A stretch of 44,680 nt of DNA, from the UHGV virus genome UHGV-0024713; one strand, written 5' to 3'. Each line of letters begins with the position of its first letter. Within the stretch, counting starts at the first letter, position 1. Below, one piece after another: positions 106-44,680 of this stretch. The DNA comes from a virus. Made by a program: the position numbers and the translations under genes. The notes under the pieces are model-generated. The model saw only the letters and a program-made list of their open reading frames with translations, was not told where the DNA came from and made no database searches.

Positions 106-134
106 TTGACACCCTGCGGTTTTAGGTGTAGTTT
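106..134 (+). promoter_or_regulatory. sigma70-like promoter candidate upstream of 166..495
   Basis: TTGACA at 106-111, 17-nt spacer, TAGTTT at 129-134; GGAGA RBS at about 154-158. Confidence 0.35.
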
Positions 135-165
135 CGTTGGTCATTAACCAACCGGAGACAGAACA

Positions 166-495
166 ATGAATATCGACGACGCAATCGAAATGTTAACTAA
201 GACTGTTTGCAGTGAGACTAGCCGGTCATGGGCGTATACCGATGCCGTGGGTGCGGTGCTATTTGAAATCGAACGTCTGCGACTTACCGAAAAAGAATTG
301 CGCGCGAAGCTGGAATTACTCAACGGTACGGCAGCCAGCAAGCTGCAAAAGCACAATGAAGAAATGGAAGAATACAAAAAACAGGTTATCCGTCTACGTG
401 AGGAAGGTAAATCCTGGGCTATGATCGCCGAGCTAACCGGAATCAACCAGAGCACCGTGCGCTCCTGGGTACGCAATAATAAAACTTCCAAATAA
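166..495 (+). CDS. Small DNA-binding protein with coiled-coil centre and C-terminal helix-turn-helix; putative regulator
   Basis: 109-aa ORF with RBS; C-terminal segment SWAMIAELTGINQSTVRSWV has HTH character; antisense ORF 144..491 is low-complexity. Confidence 0.5.
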   Translation: MNIDDAIEMLTKTVCSETSRSWAYTDAVGAVLFEIERLRLTEKELRAKLELLNGTAASKLQKHNEEMEEYKKQVIRLREEGKSWAMIAELTGINQSTVRSWVRNNKTSK

Positions 496-2781: not shown

Positions 2782-2826
2782 ATTGGTTGCCATTTTGAGT
2801 GTTTTTATCTGGCCGTATTGGTTGCC
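2782..2826 (+). promoter_or_regulatory. Direct-repeat pair of ATTGGTTGCC motif (copies at 2782-2791 and 2817-2826)
   Basis: Two identical 10-mers 35 bp apart directly after the primase-helicase stop; same motif recurs at about 10 other intergenic loci. Confidence 0.4.
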
Positions 2827-3097: not shown

Positions 3098-3107
3098 GGC
3101 AACCAAT
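3098..3107 (-). promoter_or_regulatory. Single reverse-oriented copy of the recurring motif (GGCAACCAAT on + strand)
   Basis: Matches reverse complement of ATTGGTTGCC within the non-coding hub. Confidence 0.3.
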
Positions 3108-3188: not shown

Positions 3189-3229
3189 ATTGGTTGCGTC
3201 CGCCCTGGCACCTTGCTATATTGGTTGCA
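3189..3229 (+). promoter_or_regulatory. sigma70-like promoter with embedded motif pair upstream of 3248..3556
   Basis: -35 TTGCGT (3194-3199) inside motif copy 1, 17-nt spacer, -10 TATATT (3217-3222) overlapping motif copy 2 ATTGGTTGCA (3220-3229). Confidence 0.5.
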
Positions 3230-3247
3230 CACCAACATGAGGACTGA

Positions 3248-3556
3248 ATGATGAAAGCGATTATCTGGAATTACTCCCTAGCCGTGGCAAAGTTGGACGA
3301 AGCGAAAGCACTGAACGGCAACATCGACCAGGCGCTTCAGGTTGCGATACTGGCCCACCAATCAATCCGTGATGCGCTCTACCGCATGGGCGCCAGCATG
3401 GACGAACTGAGGCCGTTGCGTATGGCAATCCACGAATACGCGCGGGCATTCTCCCGTGAGCGCCTGGCGTATCGCTTCGGTATTGGCGATAGGGCAGTGA
3501 CAAACGTCGCCAGGATTAAAGCCCAGCGCGAACTATTCGACCAGCTTGCGAAATAA
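3248..3556 (+). CDS. Hypothetical early protein (102 aa)
   Basis: ORF directly downstream of the promoter candidate; no recognisable motif. Confidence 0.5.
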   Translation: MMKAIIWNYSLAVAKLDEAKALNGNIDQALQVAILAHQSIRDALYRMGASMDELRPLRMAIHEYARAFSRERLAYRFGIGDRAVTNVARIKAQRELFDQLAK

Positions 3557-3565
3557 GGGGCCAAA

Positions 3566-3835
3566 ATGGGCCGCAGACGCGCTAAACAGCTTTCGTGGAG
3601 CATCCCACTGCATTGCATACGAATATGGGCTAAGAATGCGACTGAGGGCGATTCTGTATTCTGGTGCTATCGCGACGACGTGAAGCCACTGACGCAGACT
3701 CGCTACTTGCACCAGTTCGCGGCACAACACGATTTCAGGGTGCGGACTTCCTTGCAACCAATGGGAATACGTATTACATTACGCCGGAAGCCCGCCGTTG
3801 AGCGGGTAGGAAAACACTGGAGACTGAGCAAATGA
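3566..3835 (+). CDS. Hypothetical protein (89 aa)
   Basis: ORF in the same-strand early block, 10 nt after the preceding gene. Confidence 0.45.
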   Translation: MGRRRAKQLSWSIPLHCIRIWAKNATEGDSVFWCYRDDVKPLTQTRYLHQFAAQHDFRVRTSLQPMGIRITLRRKPAVERVGKHWRLSK

Positions 3836-6069: not shown

Positions 6070-6231
6070 ATGTTAAAAAGCATTCTTGATCATAACGCCG
6101 ACGCGCTCGCCGCGCTGGCTAAAACCGAAGACCCAGGCGCACGCGCCATTATCGCGGACACAATCAGTCATGCGGGTGTCTTTGATGCGAAGCTGCCGAG
6201 TCCGCCACCGCCCGCAGAGCCAGGGGAGTAA
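6070..6231 (+). CDS. Small proline-tailed hypothetical protein (53 aa)
   Basis: Internal ATG with GAGGAG RBS; C-terminal PSPPPPAEP; no lipobox Cys, so not called an o-spanin. Confidence 0.35.
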   Translation: MLKSILDHNADALAALAKTEDPGARAIIADTISHAGVFDAKLPSPPPPAEPGE

Positions 6232-6237
6232 ACCACA

Positions 6238-6262
6238 AGCCCGGTTAATTCCGGGCTTTTTA
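6238..6262 (+). terminator. Intrinsic terminator after the lysis cassette
   Basis: AGCCCGG-ttaatt-CCGGGCT followed by T5. Confidence 0.65.
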
Positions 6263-6266
6263 TTGC

Positions 6267-6305
6267 TTGACATGCAACCAACTATCAGACCATACTGCGA
6301 CCAAT
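6267..6305 (+). promoter_or_regulatory. sigma70-like promoter (TTGACA-18-CATACT) overlapped by two reverse-oriented motif copies
   Basis: TTGACA 6267-6272; TGCAACCAAC 6273-6282; CATACT 6291-6296; TGCGACCAAT 6296-6305. Confidence 0.45.
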
Positions 6306-6326
6306 CAACAAGAGGAGTATTACACT

Positions 6327-6419
6327 ATGGCACGTAATGATATTTGGGTATTGGCAATCTGGTCCGCCGCGGCATTTATTGGAATGGTAATTTGTGAGGT
6401 GACTTATGGCATTTAAACC
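6327..6419 (+). CDS. Tiny hydrophobic peptide (30 aa), speculative
   Basis: AGGAG RBS 9 nt upstream; hydrophobic core. Confidence 0.2.
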
Positions 6420-6639: not shown

Positions 6640-7782
6640 ATGCACCCGCAAACTAAAATCACCGACGAGCAATTGATCGCCGAGTTGCAATACGGCACTA
6701 CCGCGAAAGAGATTGCGAAGAAGTACGGCCTTTCCCTACGAAACGTCTACATGCGCAAAGCCCGCCTGTCGAAGAAAGGTATTGGTCACGGTAACGATGC
6801 CGTAATCCGTAAGCGCGTTGCCGATGGCTTCGGCGTTAAGCGCGTATCCGCCCTGGTGCGCGGCAATGGCGAAGAGGTCATGTCGTGGGTTATCACTGAG
6901 CAGGACAAGGAGCGCCAGCTTGAAGCAATGCGCGCCGTTGTCGAAGGTATGAACAGCGAAATCACCCCGGCAGCACCAGTAAGCGCCCCGCCAGTCCCGA
7001 TCCAGGCACTTGACCTACTCAACCTGTACACCGTGTCAGACTTCCACCTGGGCATGTTGGCATGGGGTGAGGAGACTGGCGAGGACTGGGATATGGCAAT
7101 CGCTGAAGACCTGTTTTACCGCTGGTTTGTCGAAGCCTTCGCCCGCGCACCGGACGCAGGCACTGCCGTAATCAATATCCTCGGTGATATGGCGCATTTT
7201 GATAGCCTCGATGCCGTCACCCCAGCTAGTGGTCACATCCTGGACGCAGATACCCGATACCAGAAGTTGGTCCGCTACATGATTCGCATGGTGCGCAACG
7301 TGGTAGACCTGGCGCTGCAAAAACACCACAAAATCAAACTTCTAATCGTCCAGGGGAATCATGACGAGTCGGGCATGATTTGGCTGGCTGAAATGTTCAA
7401 TACTCTGTATGAGAACGAGCCGCGCGTCGATGTGGATACGTCGCCGGATGTCTACAAAATGGTGCAACACGGCAAGACCACGCTATTCTTCCACCACGGG
7501 CACAAAGCGCGCTTCGATGCTATCGAAACAGTCATGATTTCTAAATTCAGACAGGCTTTCGGGTCCAGCGAATACAGCTACGCGCATGTAGGCCACTTGC
7601 ACCACCAGAAGATTGTAGAATCCCGCAACATGATTGTTGAACAGCACAGGACGCTAGCAGCGAAAGACGCCTACGCCAGTCGTGGCGGTTGGATGTCCGG
7701 TCGCAGCGCCAACGTCATTACCTACAGCGCCAACTACGGCGAAGTAGCGCGCTTAACCATTAGCCCGGAAATGTTGAAGTAA
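6640..7782 (+). CDS. Metallophosphoesterase (calcineurin-like) with N-terminal helix-turn-helix
   Basis: Start chosen at internal ATG with AGGAAG RBS; HTH-like TAKEIAKKYGLSLRNVYMRK; phosphoesterase motifs SDFHLG, GDMAHFD, QGNHDE. Confidence 0.55.
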   Translation: MHPQTKITDEQLIAELQYGTTAKEIAKKYGLSLRNVYMRKARLSKKGIGHGNDAVIRKRVADGFGVKRVSALVRGNGEEVMSWVITEQDKERQLEAMRAVVEGMNSEITPAAPVSAPPVPIQALDLLNLYTVSDFHLGMLAWGEETGEDWDMAIAEDLFYRWFVEAFARAPDAGTAVINILGDMAHFDSLDAVTPASGHILDADTRYQKLVRYMIRMVRNVVDLALQKHHKIKLLIVQGNHDESGMIWLAEMFNTLYENEPRVDVDTSPDVYKMVQHGKTTLFFHHGHKARFDAIETVMISKFRQAFGSSEYSYAHVGHLHHQKIVESRNMIVEQHRTLAAKDAYASRGGWMSGRSANVITYSANYGEVARLTISPEMLK

Positions 7783-7803
7783 CGGCAGCCAGTAAGCCAC
7801 CCA

Positions 7804-7828
7804 GCCCGCCGATTTGGTGGGCTTTTTT
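7804..7828 (+). terminator. Intrinsic terminator; TATAAT hexamer just downstream at 7837-7842
   Basis: GCCCGCC-gattt-GGTGGGC (one G-U pair in RNA) followed by T6. Confidence 0.5.
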
Positions 7829-12916: not shown

Positions 12917-13681
12917 TTATCGCGGAATACCGCAAATCTCGTTGAGAGTTTTCACGTCCAGCGCCACCGCCGTGGATTTTGGCTTGTCCGGGTATGGGAT
13001 GAATTGCTCAACTTCAGGCCACGCCTTAACCAGCTTCTTGTCAGTATTGTGCAGGTCCAGCACACCGGTAACGGTGAGTTTGAACGCATCATACTTCGCG
13101 CGCAACTCGCGACGGGCCTTGTCGTTACGGTCAAGGCGCTTACAGAAGTCATGGTCCGCCGGGTAGTCTACGCGACCGCGAGGGAGATATATCGGCAGCG
13201 CTTTCCCGTCCGCGTCAACTTCACATACTGACGCAAGCATAACCTCCTCGAACCCAGGTACGATATCGCCGAGATCGGGGGATAGCTTATTCATGTATTT
13301 ATATTCCCAGTATCCGCGATGTACGCGGTATTGGCGACCATCACCGCTCAAGGACAAGGTGCGAACATTTCCGCCTGCGTTGATTTCGAAAGTGGCGTCA
13401 TAAACGCGGCCTATACCCTTCGGGAGGCCTATGTCATAGCGATATGTTGCCTTGTTGGTGTAGACGCAGACGCAGTATATTGGCGACTTGGCACCTTCTA
13501 GTGCTTCGATGTGTGCGCGTAACTCGGCGAAAGTGCGAATGCCCTCCGGCATACAGTCCAGCGTGATTGCGTACGCCAGGTCGCGAGAGTCCATCATGAT
13601 TGATTTGGCTTCGGTAGCGATTTCATGGTCGCGCAGGATGTTAGCCAGAATCTGGTTTTTAATGTCTTTTGTCAGTCTCAT
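12917..13681 (-). CDS. Hypothetical protein (254 aa), antisense moron
   Basis: Start at internal ATG with GAGGA RBS; opposite strand to flanking structural genes; no recognisable motif. Confidence 0.6.
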   Translation of the reverse strand: MRLTKDIKNQILANILRDHEIATEAKSIMMDSRDLAYAITLDCMPEGIRTFAELRAHIEALEGAKSPIYCVCVYTNKATYRYDIGLPKGIGRVYDATFEINAGGNVRTLSLSGDGRQYRVHRGYWEYKYMNKLSPDLGDIVPGFEEVMLASVCEVDADGKALPIYLPRGRVDYPADHDFCKRLDRNDKARRELRAKYDAFKLTVTGVLDLHNTDKKLVKAWPEVEQFIPYPDKPKSTAVALDVKTLNEICGIPR

Positions 13682-13723
13682 TTTTGTGTCCTCGTGTTGG
13701 GGCTTTCGCCCCATTTGGCTTAG

Positions 13724-14131
13724 TTAAAGTGCTTCTAGAATCTCGTAAAACTTATTCGCCAGCGCCTGGCGGCGTTCGAATTTTTCAGTGATAACCAATT
13801 CCGGGCGGTTAAATAGCTTTGCGTGGGTGTTCCAATTGAGGATTTCCGTTTCCATTATTTTCTTCCGGTTGTAGTCGGTGTTTTTGATGCTAAATTCCTT
13901 GATAGCGTCATTAAGAAAATCAGTCATACACTCAACGTCTGTTCTCTTAACTTCGAACGAACGGGCCTCGATTGGGCTATTTGTGCGAAGTACGACGACT
14001 CCGCCGTGGTAGGTGTCGACTACCATATACTTATAAGTCACCCCATCCCACTCCGGATCGAAAGGGCGCCCAAATACGTCGTCGGCTTTCCACACTTTCT
14101 GGTACGGTGTTTCTTTGATTAATGTTGGCAT
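13724..14131 (-). CDS. Hypothetical protein (135 aa), antisense moron, AT-richer than surroundings
   Basis: AAGGA RBS; preceded on the minus strand by TTGCAA-18-TATATT with motif copies; visibly lower GC by eye. Confidence 0.6.
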   Translation of the reverse strand: MPTLIKETPYQKVWKADDVFGRPFDPEWDGVTYKYMVVDTYHGGVVVLRTNSPIEARSFEVKRTDVECMTDFLNDAIKEFSIKNTDYNRKKIMETEILNWNTHAKLFNRPELVITEKFERRQALANKFYEILEAL

Positions 14132-14160
14132 TTTGTTTTTCCTTCACGTCTCTGTTGGTG

Positions 14161-14184
14161 TGCGACCAATATATTGCAACCAAT
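14161..14184 (-). promoter_or_regulatory. Promoter candidate for the antisense cassette, with motif pair
   Basis: + strand TGCGACCAAT (14161-14170) and TGCAACCAAT (14175-14184); on minus strand TTGCAA-18-TATATT. Confidence 0.45.
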
Positions 14185-14287
14185 ACCAGGATTGCAAGCG
14201 AATTTTGCGATTATTTTTATCGCTGATAATATTAAAGGCGTGAAGTCGAGCGGGTGGCCCGCTCTGCCACAATCCCAGGGGGATAGC

Positions 14288-19020: not shown

Positions 19021-19050
19021 TTTGGTCGCTTAAATAGCGAGTGATAATAT

Positions 19051-19073
19051 GGGGCCAGCACGGCCCCTTTTTT
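19051..19073 (+). terminator. Intrinsic terminator after the major tail gene
   Basis: GGGGCC-agca-CGGCCCC followed by T6. Confidence 0.7.
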
Positions 19074-19770: not shown

Positions 19771-20029
19771 GCGGGACAAAACGGGACGTCCCGTTTTGTC
19801 CCGCCCCTGCAAAACTGCATATACAATCACTTCAATTGCATAAACTCAAAGCGGGACAGGCGGGACACCCCGTTTTGTCCCGCCCTGTAAATGTGCATAC
19901 CTATGCAGATCTCGTGCATAAAGTAAGCGGGACAGAAAGCGGGACAAACAAGGGGCGGGACAGAGCGGGACAGCACCCCGTCCCCGCCAGTGCTGCCGCG
20001 GTTTTTAGTCGATCGGGACAGGCGGGACA
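19771..20029. repeat. Iteron array B: about 10 GCGGGACA-type octamers in both orientations, including a perfect 34-bp palindrome (19771-19804)
   Basis: GCGGGACAAAACGGGAC/GTCCCGTTTTGTCCCGC; octamers at about 19851, 19860, 19927, 19939, 19955, 19965, 20013, 20022; 19915-19988 is near-identical to 2865-2940. Confidence 0.7.
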
Positions 20030-20034
20030 AACCA

Positions 20035-30281: not shown

Positions 30282-30291
30282 TGCAACCAAT
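30282..30291 (-). promoter_or_regulatory. Motif copy in the divergent region between lipoprotein and tail-fibre genes
   Basis: + strand TGCAACCAAT, reading ATTGGTTGCA about 55 nt upstream of the lipoprotein start on the minus strand. Confidence 0.4.
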
Positions 30292-32670: not shown

Positions 32671-33192
32671 TTATTTCAGTGCGCTACGTACCAGTGTTTT
32701 TTCCATGTTGCGGAAGTCTTCCGGCGTCATGAGGATTTTGGACCCATCTTCACCGGTGAGCACGACCATAGGCTGGACGTCTTGGGCTACAACTCCGAAA
32801 TTGGCGGCTTTAACCATCTTTCCCGCAGATGCCGAAGGATGCCACGCCACAGCGGTGGAGATGGGCCAACCTTTAAGGCTGTCGTATTGCGCTGCCGTTG
32901 TATCGATCTGAATCTCGTCATGCACGGTCATGTAAGACTCGCCCAGCAGGGCGGCATACGCTACCAGGTCGACGATATTGTCTTCCTGGTGCTTACGGTG
33001 CTGGCGCACCAGCTTCAGGCAGATCAAGAAGGTCCAGGCTTCTTGCTCGGTCAGGTCGCGACCGGTAAGCGCGTTAAACACGGCGGCGATTTGTTTAGCG
33101 ATGCGTTCTTCTTTCGCGTTGCCATAGCCGTTTTCTTTTCCGCGCTGTTCCATAGTGGTGGCGGCGTTTTTGCAGTATTCGTATGCTTTCAT
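32671..33192 (-). CDS. Hypothetical protein (173 aa)
   Basis: RBS-preceded ORF; no recognisable motif. Confidence 0.5.
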   Translation of the reverse strand: MKAYEYCKNAATTMEQRGKENGYGNAKEERIAKQIAAVFNALTGRDLTEQEAWTFLICLKLVRQHRKHQEDNIVDLVAYAALLGESYMTVHDEIQIDTTAAQYDSLKGWPISTAVAWHPSASAGKMVKAANFGVVAQDVQPMVVLTGEDGSKILMTPEDFRNMEKTLVRSALK

Positions 33193-33245
33193 TATGTGGT
33201 CCTTTTTATGGGGGGCCGTATTGCCTCCCGACGCGTTAACTATAA

Positions 33246-33267
33246 TGCAACCAACCTATTGGTTGCA
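33246..33267. promoter_or_regulatory. Inverted pair of the motif (TGCAACCAA-cct-ATTGGTTGCA) with adjacent TATAAT
   Basis: Palindromic arrangement between two minus-strand genes; minus strand reads TTGCAA-18-TATAGT. Confidence 0.45.
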
Positions 33268-35107: not shown

Positions 35108-35155
35108 CGTGTCGTCTCCAGGTATTAAAAAGGGCGTCCAACCGGACACCCTCAA

Positions 35156-35187
35156 TATAATGCAACCAATATGATTAAGCAACCAAT
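35156..35187 (-). promoter_or_regulatory. Promoter candidate with motif pair upstream of 34856..35107
   Basis: + strand TATAAT-TGCAACCAAT...AGCAACCAAT; minus strand TTGCTT-17-TATATT. Confidence 0.45.
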
Positions 35188-38073: not shown

Positions 38074-38113
38074 CTCTAAAATCCTCGATATGGCTAACCG
38101 GCACACTATACCG

Positions 38114-38392
38114 CTACGCGACCAATTCAGCAACCAATAAATCACAGTCGGCTATGCTGTCGATGACGCGAACGTCAGCGCCTCGGCGGGCCATTCGCTC
38201 ATGTTCACGTACCTGGTGCGGCTTCGGTTTTCCTCCTGGGCGCTTCACTTCGACGAACACTATTTTGCCGTTGATGATGATAATCAGGTCGGGCGCACCT
38301 ACGCGCCCCTCCCAGGCCATTTTGCGGCAGAATCCGCCTACCTCTTTCACCCGTCGCATCAGGTGTCTTTGGATCTTGCCCTCGGGTGTCAT
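38114..38392 (-). CDS. VRR-NUC domain nuclease
   Basis: PDLIIIINGKIVFVEVKRPGGKPKPHQ (PD...EVK) and size typical of VRR-NUC; start overlaps the polymerase stop. Confidence 0.7.
   Translation of the reverse strand: MTPEGKIQRHLMRRVKEVGGFCRKMAWEGRVGAPDLIIIINGKIVFVEVKRPGGKPKPHQVREHERMARRGADVRVIDSIADCDLLVAELVA
38118..38138 (-). promoter_or_regulatory. Promoter candidate with motif pair inside the 3' end of the VRR-NUC gene
   Basis: Minus strand ATTGGTTGCTGAATTGGTCGCG then TATAGT; -35 TTGCTG, 17-nt spacer. Confidence 0.4.
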
Positions 38393-41746: not shown

Positions 41747-41772
41747 CTTGGTTGCCAATCTACTTGGTTGCG
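41747..41772 (+). promoter_or_regulatory. Direct pair of CTTGGTTGC(C/G) motif variants upstream of the SSB-like gene
   Basis: CTTGGTTGCC (41747-41756) and CTTGGTTGCG (41763-41772). Confidence 0.35.
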
Positions 41773-41781
41773 CCTAAGCGG

Positions 41782-42024
41782 TCAAGCATTTTCATTAAAA
41801 AGATTTCGGGTCACGTAGTTGGTGGCGTTCTCGATCCAGCTTAGCGGCGGGCGTTCGATGTTCTTTTCCACCCAGGCGACGGCAACTTCGCTATAGCCGT
41901 CATCCAGCCAGCGGGTCGGATGGCGAATCATCCACGCCACCATTAACACGCCTTGCACGCAATGCAGGATAAAGCCCAGCGCGCCGAGCAAAAACATCAA
42001 TAAGATTGCGAATACTTTATTCAT
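41782..42024 (-). CDS. Small membrane protein (80 aa)
   Basis: N-terminal hydrophobic helix; overlaps the upstream gene stop. Confidence 0.45.
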   Translation of the reverse strand: MNKVFAILLMFLLGALGFILHCVQGVLMVAWMIRHPTRWLDDGYSEVAVAWVEKNIERPPLSWIENATNYVTRNLFNENA

Positions 42025-43925: not shown

Positions 43926-44441
43926 TTAATCTTCCAGTTCGAAATAAGTTTCGACGATTTCTTTAAGATCTTTGTGGAAGTCTTCGACGTCTTCATCTTC
44001 CAGCTTGGCGATTGATTTGATCTCGAACGATTCCAGCAGGTCGTCAAATTCGTCGTTCGCGTCGTCGTCGTCACCACCGGCAATAATAGCGGCATATTGT
44101 TTGATTTCGTCGCGCATCTCCGCCAGCGGATCGGCATCTTTCTTGCCTTTGCCTTTCGCCGGGGCTTTTTTAGATTTAGCCGGTTTTTCGTCTTCGGCAT
44201 CATCGTCGTCATCTTCTACGACTTCTTTTTTGGCCTTACCTTTCGCAGGGGCTTTTTTAGATTTAGCCGGTTTTTCGTCTTCGGCGTCATCGTCGTCATC
44301 TTCTACGACTTCTTTCTTGGCCTTAGACGGCTTCTTGTCTTCCTGCTTACCAACGGCAGCGCCAACGGTTTCATAATGCTTAGCGATGGTTTCCAGTGCT
44401 ACTACGCCGCGAGTAATCAGGTTTACGATTTGTTCAAACAT
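43926..44441 (-). CDS. Highly charged tandem-repeat protein (171 aa) with alternating poly-Asp/Glu and Lys/Ala-rich blocks
   Basis: Two near-perfect 28-aa repeats KKEVVEDDDDDAEDEKPAKSKKAPAKGK; GGAGA RBS; own terminator. Confidence 0.65.
   Translation of the reverse strand: MFEQIVNLITRGVVALETIAKHYETVGAAVGKQEDKKPSKAKKEVVEDDDDDAEDEKPAKSKKAPAKGKAKKEVVEDDDDDAEDEKPAKSKKAPAKGKGKKDADPLAEMRDEIKQYAAIIAGGDDDDANDEFDDLLESFEIKSIAKLEDEDVEDFHKDLKEIVETYFELED
44150..44320 (-). repeat. 84-bp tandem duplication (2 copies) inside the charged-repeat gene
   Basis: ...cgccggggcttttttagatttagccggtttttcgtcttcggcatcatcgtcgtcatcttctacgacttc... repeated with 2-3 substitutions. Confidence 0.7.
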
Positions 44442-44646
44442 GTTTTATATCTCCGATTGGTTAAGTTTAGGTGTCGGCAGTTAACTTCGTCGGTGGCCTT
44501 AACATATTGCCAGGTTACGCGTTCTCCCGTTCGGGTAGTGGACCTGGTTATATAATCACGGTTGGGAATCCTGACACTTCGATCCGGCCCCTGCGTTGCC
44601 CCTCTCCAGTTTGCGTCCTGCATCCTGTCGACGAGGTGCATATTAG

Positions 44647-44656
44647 ATTGGTTGCA
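44647..44656 (+). promoter_or_regulatory. Motif copy ATTGGTTGCA near the window end
   Basis: Exact 10-mer; a variant GATTGGTTAAG also at about 44454-44464. Confidence 0.35.
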
Positions 44657-44680
44657 TGAGGGAGTCAACAACTAATTTCA

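Follow-up and report, generated by a model that had tools for sequence, protein, structure and literature searches.

A nine-base word within predicted promoters of a Dhillonvirus genome and a candidate early regulator

Genome setting and the recurrent word

The window, i.e., the whole stretch of 44,680 bp analysed here, is a complete Dhillonvirus (HK578-like) genome, a virulent E. coli siphophage. It was matched by 185 phage records, and the identity to Shigella phage 1b, phage bob, SECphi18, and YD-2008.s was approximately 91% over 20 kb. The gene map was carried over from YD-2008.s by tblastn. The rightward genes, 166 to 29009, comprise the HTH protein, helicase-primase, small genes, lysis, phosphoesterase, terminase, head, and tail genes. 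The leftward genes, 44441 to 32053, comprise exonuclease, SSB, DNA polymerase, helicase, methylases, and small genes. The opposite strand is used by a few accessory genes, and the intergenic share of the genome is 7.2%. Two iteron arrays, 2877-2978 and 19771-20030, use the word TGTCCCGC. In GenBank records of relatives, the annotation of such elements is limited to consensus-type promoters at one locus (HK578) and two iteron regions (SO-1). No Rfam covariance model matched at gathering score across the whole window.

A second short word, ATTGGTYGC, recurs in the genome. Counting both strands, the exact form ATTGGTTGC has 13 copies, whereas 0.57 would be expected from 100 dinucleotide shuffles, none of which had more than 3. 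With one mismatch allowed, there are 27 matches against 12.4 expected. In a k-mer scan without prior assumptions, GCAACCAAT was the top-ranked 9-mer of the window (z=17), and also the top 9-mer in YD-2008.s, HK578, SO-1, and LM40P1. The recurrent motif of the first-pass annotation is thus confirmed, and every locus listed there exists. The motif had been given as 10 bp with a final R, which has to be shortened. In the alignment of 21 copies, information was limited to 9 positions, A-T-T-G-G-T-(T/C)-G-C, with about 15 bits in total. The tenth base was A in approximately half of the sites and carried only 0.29 bits, so that the R is unsupported. Minus-strand copies had been placed off by one and are corrected to 3099, 6274/6297, 14162/14176, 30283, 33247, 35162/35179, and 38130. 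Two copies had been missed, i.e., 3754 on the minus strand and a weak one, 19021, on the plus strand.

With a weight matrix, 22 sites scored at least 13, against 2.2 in simulated genomes. Sixteen of them are strictly intergenic and three lie over the last codons of a gene, so approximately 19 of the 22 fall in non-coding DNA or gene ends, which make up 7% of the genome. This agrees with the earlier description of copies lying almost only between genes or at gene ends. The leftover coding copies, three or four, correspond to chance frequency, and the enrichment is intergenic; a refutation would have required copies at chance level in ORFs and no enrichment outside them. One-mismatch variants, with G/C at position 1 or C at position 7, were found at 6274, 6297, 14162, 33247, 38118, 41747, and 41763. 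The sites form 12 loci and are usually paired at spacings of 12-35 bp, mostly in a single or direct-repeat layout. When viral contigs were scanned for ATTGGTTGC-N3-25-ATTGGTYGC pairs, mostly unrelated tandem repeats were returned.

Position of the sites in predicted promoters

Promoters of sigma70 type were scored around each motif locus and genome-wide. All 21 sites were located within -41..+3 of a promoter prediction facing downstream genes. The genes behind these predictions are replication, recombination, methylase, and superinfection-exclusion genes, and small genes without assigned function. At 11 motif loci the prediction scored at least 9.5 and faced the next gene, and the predictions at locus A and 3099 were weak. 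The sites, the predictions, and the related features are as follows, with site positions given relative to the predicted transcription start.

106 to 134, plus strand: promoter prediction TTGACA-17-TAGTTT of the HTH and helicase-primase operon, without canonical site
137 to 151: variant palindrome TTGGTCATTAACCAA (TTGGT-N5-ACCAA), spanning about -5..+11 of the promoter of the HTH gene itself; conserved in four of five genomes
166 to 495, plus strand: gene of the candidate binding protein, 109 aa, with a long helix (26-79) and a C-terminal HTH (residues 65-108)
2782 to 2790, plus strand: site ATTGGTTGC, locus A, upstream copy just past the helicase-primase stop codon; kept in five genomes
2817 to 2825, plus strand: site ATTGGTTGC, locus A, at about -34..-26 (or -41..-33) of a weak promoter prediction, TTGGTT-15-TATAGT / TTGCCG-18-AATAGT, which points into the TGTCCCGC iteron array
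3099 to 3107, minus strand: single site ATTGGTTGC on the other side of the iteron array; the nearby promoter prediction is poor
3189 to 3197, plus strand: site ATTGGTTGC at -40..-32; its own TTGC makes the -35 hexamer TTGCGT
3220 to 3228, plus strand: site ATTGGTTGC at -9..-1, over the -10 hexamer TATATT and within the palindrome TTGGTTGCACACCAA (3221-3235)
3194 to 3222, plus strand: promoter prediction TTGCGT-17-TATATT, score 11.5, facing gene 3248-3556
3754 to 3762, minus strand: site ATTGGTTGC inside gene 3566-3835; invariant in five genomes, while neighbouring codons vary
3752 to 3780, plus strand: promoter prediction TTGCAA-17-TACATT for gene 3963; its -35 is site 3754 read as TTGCAAccaat
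6274 to 6282, minus strand: reversed site GTTGGTTGC, at -29..-21 within the spacer of promoter 6267
6297 to 6305, minus strand: reversed site ATTGGTCGC, covering -6..+2 of promoter 6267
6267 to 6296, plus strand: promoter prediction TTGACA-18-CATACT, just past the terminator 6237-6258, facing the phosphoesterase gene 6640-7782
7803 to 7823: terminator following the phosphoesterase gene 6640-7782
14162 to 14170, minus strand: site ATTGGTCGC at -9..-1, over the -10 and within a TTGGT-N5-ACCAA palindrome (14155-14169)
14176 to 14184, minus strand: site ATTGGTTGC in the spacer (-23..-15)
14168 to 14197, minus strand: promoter prediction TTGCAA-18-TATATT for leftward accessory genes 14131-13724 and the Nmad5 gene 13714-12917
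19021 to 19029, plus strand: weak variant TTTGGTCGC, matrix score 10.8; conserved, of doubtful membership
19022 to 19050, plus strand: promoter prediction TTGGTC-17-TAATAT, with its -35 hexamer TTGGTC from the weak variant
30283 to 30291, minus strand: site ATTGGTTGC at -40..-32 of the next prediction
30286 to 30258, minus strand: promoter prediction TTGCAT-17-AATACT, facing Cor-like and DUF6453 genes
33247 to 33255, minus strand: site GTTGGTTGC in the spacer (-23..-15)
33258 to 33266, plus strand: site ATTGGTTGC, inverted partner (GCAACCAAccTAttGGTTGC); its minus strand gives the -35 hexamer TTGCAA
33239 to 33268, minus strand: promoter prediction TTGCAA-18-TATAGT, facing the DUF6378 gene 33192-32671
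35162 to 35170, minus strand: site ATTGGTTGC in the spacer (-23..-15)
35179 to 35187, minus strand: site ATTGGTTGC at -40..-32, giving the -35 hexamer TTGCTT
35154 to 35182, minus strand: promoter prediction TTGCTT-17-TATATT; a terminator hairpin begins 1 nt past the -10
38118 to 38126, minus strand: site ATTGGTCGC in the spacer (-28..-20)
38130 to 38138, minus strand: site ATTGGTTGC at -40..-32, giving the -35 hexamer TTGCTG; over the last codons of the VRR-NUC gene
38105 to 38133, minus strand: promoter prediction TTGCTG-17-TATAGT, facing Lar-like, SNF2 helicase, and C5-methylase genes
41747 to 41755, plus strand: site CTTGGTTGC, reverse relative to transcription, at -5..+3
41763 to 41771, plus strand: site CTTGGTTGC, reverse orientation, in the spacer (-21..-13)
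41757 to 41785, minus strand: promoter prediction TTGACC-17-TAGATT, facing SSB and DNA polymerase genes
44647 to 44655, plus strand: reversed site ATTGGTTGC, at -22..-14 within the spacer of the leftward early promoter, where a promoter is also annotated in the HK578 record
44640 to 44668, minus strand: promoter prediction TTGACT-17-TAATAT, facing the leftward early operon (44441 to exonuclease)

Two of the hexamer pairs quoted in the first-pass annotation, 3194-3222 and 6267-6296, are confirmed, while the third lies at 14197-14168 on the minus strand and not at 14161-14190. The word is present in 11 of the 36 best promoter-like matches of the genome. Such matches were no commoner genome-wide than in shuffles; therefore, the promoter assignments rest on position, orientation, and conservation, and hexamer matches by themselves count for little.

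Both orientations occur, as reported earlier, with 13 sites directed with transcription and seven against. In the forward sites at -40..-32 (3189, 30283, 35179, and 38130), TTGC forms the -35 hexamer, exactly 17 bp from the -10. The other forward sites are placed at -23..-15 (14176, 33247, and 35162), -28..-20 (38118), or -9..-1 (3220 and 14162). The reverse sites at -33..-25 (3754 and 33258) give the -35 hexamer TTGCAA, and the remaining reverse sites lie in the spacer (6274, 41763, and 44647) or at -6..+3 (6297 and 41747). The near-consensus promoters 6267 (TTGACA), 41785 (TTGACC), and 44668 (TTGACT) have reverse sites only, all downstream of the -35. Such variation in orientation and in distance from the hexamers is better explained by an operator than by a fixed promoter element.

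The canonical word is absent from the predicted HTH/helicase-primase promoter and from the predicted structural-gene promoters 7814, 14205, and 18235. The palindrome TTGGT-N5-ACCAA was found in three copies (3221, 14155, and 137), each just past a -10 hexamer, and the copy at 137..151 is a candidate autoregulatory site of the HTH gene. Terminators are located directly upstream of some site-bearing promoters (6237-6258, and a hairpin with U-run at 35-1 of the minus strand), or start one nucleotide past the -10 (at 35154 and 19050). Because terminators stand before or inside several promoters, each unit would be insulated from upstream transcription and would rely on its local promoter.

Conservation of the word and the candidate binding protein

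For a quantitative test, the 12 loci were aligned from five genomes. Fully conserved columns made up 86% of the motif and 58% of the flanks, although the flank columns include the hexamers and ribosome-binding sites (Fisher p=8e-15). As judged from these alignments, the sites are under purifying selection across the genus. The copies also change in number. In LM40P1, a third copy was gained at locus A, a second copy was gained at locus G (30283), 17 bp downstream of the first and in the architecture of 35179/35162, and one copy at locus H was shifted, with pairs maintained.

In a metagenomic relative, L135, the helicase-primase is 68% identical in amino acids and the neighbouring genes are largely different. 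TTGGTYGC was counted nine times there against 1.1 expected, in architectures as in the window. Four copies lie past the helicase-primase gene, and a 17-bp pair ends 2 nt before TATATT. At another place TTGACG-t-GCAACCAAT follows a terminator, and the canonical TGCAACCAAT lies at about +8 of the HTH gene's promoter, where the window has the variant palindrome. The iteron word TGTCCCGC becomes GTGTGCCAA in L135, changing with the helicase-primase, while ATTGGTYGC is unchanged. Contigs with the HK578-type version of the HTH protein contained 16 copies of the word against 1.5 expected, and HK578-type genomes are without the variant site at the HTH promoter. The motif sought in relatives was thus found as invariant 9-mers at 12 loci of five genomes, and also in L135 and HK578-type contigs. 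Outside the genus, Kagunavirus St162, the next-nearest group by helicase-primase identity (44%), infects Salmonella. The word was at chance level there (two copies), and no 9-mer was dominant. It is very likely that ATTGGTYGC is a selected, promoter-embedded cis element. The earlier proposal, that the copies form a family of operators or promoters specific to the phage and mark early and accessory units, is supported by the promoter placement, the motif-free structural promoters, and the genus-wide conservation.

Two HTH proteins had been named before as possible binders. The one at 166..495 stands, with the Pfam domains HTH_23 and Sigma70_r4_2 above gathering score at residues 65-105. The product of 6640-7782 was rejected as an HTH protein; it is a calcineurin-like phosphoesterase (Metallophos) / DNA repair exonuclease. 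Among the proteins tested, mainly gene products without assigned function, the 166-495 protein was the only one with a Pfam-detectable DNA-binding domain. Among 5.8 billion proteins, its family amounts to approximately 36 clusters, and apart from two serine recombinases these are all Dhillonvirus-like. The two recombinases match only in the C-terminal HTH, with 67-71% identity, and their short contigs were not enriched for the word.

The N-terminus of the protein is hypervariable, or fully replaced in the HK578 type. Almost no change is seen in the block LRxEGxSWxxIAxxTG(I/V)NxS/T-T-V/I-RxW, which includes the recognition-helix core S/T-T-V/I-R-x-W. In relatives down to 39-59% HTH identity, this core and the word were both unchanged. 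In the AlphaFold model (pLDDT 85), a short helix is followed by one of 54 residues, probably used for dimerisation, and by a tri-helical HTH; there is no catalytic domain. Foldseek on the model matched the HTH only (IstA, Sin/Tn3 resolvase, LuxR/GerE, DeoR, and sigma region 4; E>0.4). Together with a PDB profile search, it returned generic HTH matches, one of them a designed repeat protein, and no functional homologue. By analogy, this HTH type belongs to a class whose domain would read one short asymmetric site.

The word and the HTH gene co-occur in eight of eight genomes or contigs and are both absent from St162, all within one clade and with a constant recognition helix. Because the co-occurrence is within a single clade, the link between HTH and motif is a correlation only. 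In St162, the gene syntenic to 166-495, upstream of the primase-helicase, encodes a Cro/CI-type HTH. An invariant recognition helix beside an invariant word, with iterons that shift with the helicase-primase in L135, is consistent with reading of the word by the 166-495 protein. On these sequence patterns, this assignment is modestly favoured. The real binder could be one of the small proteins without assigned function.

Possible function of the sites

It was inferred that the predicted promoters are used, that the 166-495 protein binds the sites, and that the effect is repressive. The 166-495 gene is the first of the rightward immediate-early operon, and each HTH of its product would read one asymmetric 9-bp site. 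Early in infection every promoter would fire. As the protein accumulates, it would fill the sites over the -35, spacer, -10, or +1, and the early and accessory units would be turned down. Its own promoter would be dampened through the weaker TTGGT-N5-ACCAA site, and the structural-gene promoters, which are without the motif, would remain on. Occlusion of RNA polymerase is the simplest mechanism, because the sites overlap promoter cores in either orientation, usually twice per promoter. The spacer and +1 copies lie where sigma70 reads no sequence, and a protein bound there would exclude the polymerase. A net repressive effect is put forward tentatively, at somewhat less than an even chance. The whole model, i.e., dispersed operators in about a dozen promoters of the host RNA polymerase (sigma70 type) read by the early 166-495 regulator in a Cro-like early shut-off, is the preferred reading, although it falls just short of evenly balanced. 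Two points speak against it: if the first gene encodes a repressor of replication-gene promoters, some delay must be built in, and the variant site at the HTH promoter is missing from HK578-type genomes. The regulator is probably repressive or Cro-like, and possibly dual.

The likeness to lambda Cro lies in a small early HTH gene that opens the rightward early operon beside a divergent promoter region, with operators overlapping early promoters. By this analogy, its role would be to turn down early transcription and to regulate itself. The Cro/CI-type gene of St162 holds the same genomic position. However, lambda operators are 17-bp pseudo-palindromes in two clusters, while the sites here are at 12 loci and mostly single or direct repeats, and the HTH of 166-495 is of another class (HTH_23 / Sigma70_r4_2 / resolvase-like).

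The sites may instead be activator or middle-promoter elements. The 166-495 protein or another phage factor would bind the word at the -35 of promoters with poor hexamers (TTGCnn) and recruit or re-target host RNA polymerase, like T4 MotA boxes or lambda CII sites (TTGC-N6-TTGC), and spacer and +1 sites would repress consensus TTGAC-type promoters, giving a position-dependent early-to-middle switch. In T4 middle promoters, the MotA box, an asymmetric word of 9 bp, takes the place of the -35 element ahead of a good -10; its orientation and position (-30) are fixed, and AsiA is required. The likeness here is a 9-bp asymmetric word at the -35, with 4-6 sites in one register relative to the -10, and a proposed reliance on an early phage protein. 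Forward sites begin exactly 28 nt before the -10 at 3189, 35179, and 38130, and 27-28 nt before it at 30283, and the same -40..-32 register was found in L135 and in the copy gained by LM40P1. The motif imposes C at position 4 of these -35 hexamers, which is suboptimal for sigma70. The restriction of the three near-consensus promoters (6267, 41785, and 44668) to reverse sites downstream of the -35, and the regulator's own consensus-like promoter without canonical site, would also be expected. The 4-6 sites in this fixed register, with TTGC as a weak -35, fit an activator equally well. However, a single orientation at a fixed distance from the -10, as in MotA boxes, was not found. Only those 4-6 of the 21 sites share the register, and the others range from -40 through +3 in both orientations, far more variably than MotA boxes. 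Another copy lies in the spacer or over the -10 in most promoters with a site at the -35, and a protein bound to that copy should obstruct polymerase. No MotA-like or AsiA-like protein was detectable among the proteins tested, and TTGCnn with a good -10 and a 17-bp spacer already scores as a usable sigma70 promoter. Activation is considered rather unlikely. A dual switch, in which one small early protein acts as a global transcription switch with the outcome set by the position of single 9-bp sites, is given a slightly smaller chance. If true, it would repress 6267, 41785, 44668, and its own promoter via spacer and +1 sites and activate the TTGC-type promoters from -40..-32, with the hypervariable N-terminus adjusting the switch to host factors or host defence.

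The remaining explanations are less likely than activation. Binding of the word by a host E. coli protein (GntR/FadR-type, PdhR-like, or a nucleoid protein) would couple phage transcription to the physiology of the host. The boxes of PdhR and FadR, GntR-family proteins, have TTGGT...ACCAA-like half-sites, which the three N5 palindromes at promoter starts resemble, and the motif is identical in phages isolated on E. coli, Shigella, and Sodalis. However, PdhR-type TTGGT-N3-ACCAA boxes are absent from the genome, a dimeric palindrome reader would not account for the invariance of G8 and C9 or for sites that are mostly single or in direct repeat, and the word co-occurs perfectly with a genus-specific HTH gene. 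Its lack in St162 argues only weakly against a shared enterobacterial factor, because that phage infects Salmonella and not E. coli. A host reader is thus improbable. Nor is a separate factor required if the word is a shared piece of duplicated, paralogous sigma70 promoters, kept as promoters are kept. A -35-like hexamer is available from both orientations (TTGCnn forward and TTGCAA reverse), and clear paralogy over longer stretches is seen between promoters 14197 and 33268 (AAAATTCRCTTGCAA) and between 3220 and 14162 (TATATTGGTYGCACACCAACA). Paralogy as the whole explanation is quite improbable: the information is limited to 9 bp with unrelated flanks, many copies lie in the spacer or past the -10, outside what sigma70 reads, the 9-mer is conserved better than the flanks that contain the hexamers, and copies turn over while the word remains exact. 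A replication, recombination, or transposition site, i.e., helicase-primase iterons or transposase/resolvase-type sites, is very improbable. In its favour, five copies flank the non-coding region just past the helicase-primase gene, the HTH is annotated as transposase or resolvase in many records and is 67-71% identical to that of the two serine recombinases, and the fold matches include the HTH domains of IstA and Sin/Tn3 resolvase. Against it, arrays beside an initiator gene and co-varying with the initiator, as replication iterons are, were not found; the sites are scattered among 12 promoter positions, all conserved, and border no mobile unit. The 166-495 protein has no catalytic domain, the recombinase contigs are not enriched for the word, and it is the array word, TGTCCCGC in the window and GTGTGCCAA in L135, that changes. 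As origin iteron, ATTGGTYGC was rejected in favour of TGTCCCGC.

The sites also have parallels beyond lambda. P1 C1, a 283-aa repressor of a temperate phage, has 17-bp asymmetric operators scattered over many operons, overlapping promoters and sometimes paired, which serve lysogenic immunity. The dispersed, non-palindromic, promoter-overlapping, and sometimes paired sites are alike, but the Dhillonvirus is virulent, its site has a length of 9 bp, and the candidate reader is an unrelated 109-aa protein with coiled coil and resolvase-type HTH. The stoperators of mycobacteriophage L5 gp71 are short asymmetric sites, found in tens of copies and following the direction of transcription, and their effect is on elongation. 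The sites here are likewise short, asymmetric, and in short intergenic regions, with a single phage HTH as candidate reader. However, an orientation tied to transcription was not found (13 co-oriented and seven opposite), and all sites lie over promoter cores. NarL/LuxR heptamers and resolvase/Hin half-sites are read by HTHs of the same fold class, with one domain per short asymmetric site and variable orientations and spacings. Those proteins carry receiver or catalytic domains, while 166-495 has only the variable N-terminal helix and the long helix.

A search of the available literature found no description of the motif, of Dhillonvirus promoters, or of Dhillonvirus transcriptomes, and a search with the motif string returned unrelated primers only. 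No earlier description of ATTGGTYGC was thus found, but the kind of element is familiar and not surprising in principle. Dispersed operators and phage-specific promoter words are already well known, and no new principle is involved. Dhillonviruses, which are common E. coli phages, belong to the BASEL collection and serve in work on defence systems and phage therapy. The motif gives a testable map of approximately 12 transcription units and one candidate regulator gene. It may be useful for portable promoters and operators in phage engineering, for reading defence-system triggers that depend on early-gene timing, and for annotation of roughly 150 sequenced relatives. In these roughly 150 relatives, homologues of the 166-495 protein are mislabelled as transposase, resolvase, or Gam.

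Module junctions and the leftward cassette

Two leftward accessory genes were found embedded within the head-gene module.

12917-13714, minus strand: gene of a protein with an Nmad5 (nucleotide-modification-associated) domain
13724-14131, minus strand: gene without family match

This cassette (12917-14131) is driven by a predicted promoter at 14197-14168, which bears the 9-bp operator word ATTGGTYGC. In relatives, unrelated genes take the place of its first gene, e.g., a RusA-like gene in phage SO-1. By comparison with relatives, mosaic junctions were recognized at 6220-6350, 14110-14160, 33180-33240, and 44440-44600, where the sequence abutting motif-bearing promoters differs from genome to genome without any relatedness and the promoter and operator block itself is retained. 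These blocks may also serve as conserved linkers for the exchange of gene modules.

Intrinsic-terminator hairpins were located next to two promoter predictions.

35131-35153, minus strand: hairpin starting 1 nt past the -10 of the promoter prediction 35182-35154
19051-19073, plus strand: hairpin starting directly past the -10 of the promoter prediction 19022-19050

Because the hairpins start right behind the -10 elements, terminator and promoter overlap in both cases. A transcript initiated at either predicted promoter would lack the hairpin's 5' arm and would escape termination, and read-through from upstream would be stopped.

Candidate small RNA and the HTH protein in the early region

A strong promoter (score 13.8) was predicted between the two divergent early promoters.

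92-1, running on to 44680 if the genome is circular, minus strand: unit headed by the predicted promoter TTGAAA-17-AATAAT, which has a TG upstream

Approximately 55 nt downstream of it lies a hairpin followed by U9 (-16.2 kcal/mol, z = -3.6), and the unit is a candidate small RNA. The 92-1 region shows nearly no variation across the genus. The divergent metagenomic relative L135 keeps this arrangement of promoter and terminator as well as the blocks UCUCAUUG and UUAUUGGUU; its hairpin differs in sequence.

Among homologs of the HTH protein (166-495), the HTH is nearly invariant, whereas the first approximately 45 residues are hypervariable; in HK578-type phages the N-terminal part is swapped for an unrelated segment of 80 residues. 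The labels given to this gene in public records, i.e., transposase, resolvase, and "nuclease inhibitor gamma", were all unsupported.

Iteron-like arrays and other over-represented words

Besides ATTGGTYGC, a second over-represented word was TGTCCCGC; the window has 19 copies where 1.4 are expected. The copies make up two iteron-like arrays.

2877-2978, both orientations: array directly 3' of the helicase-primase gene
19771-20030, both orientations: array in the non-coding gap 5' of the tape-measure gene

Their counterparts are "repeat regions B and A" of the SO-1 record, and in L135 GTGTGCCAA replaces TGTCCCGC in the array 3' of the helicase-primase gene. Phage P4 has an ori and crr layout. 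By analogy, the two arrays look like an origin and a second cis-replication region. In both arrays, inverted repeats of the TATGCA-N7-TGCATA type (2851-2870, 19810-19850, and 19895-19925) repeatedly adjoin the iterons, and may be an additional protein-binding element of the presumed origins.

Both GCTGCCGT and similar words of the form G(C/T)TGCCGT are intragenic (e.g., 328, 2100, 4534, 7782, 9342, and 11671) and over-represented in every Dhillonvirus examined, with 24 copies against 2.9 expected in the window. They are biased to the minus strand (17 minus, 7 plus), with 14 to 3 in the rightward gene block.
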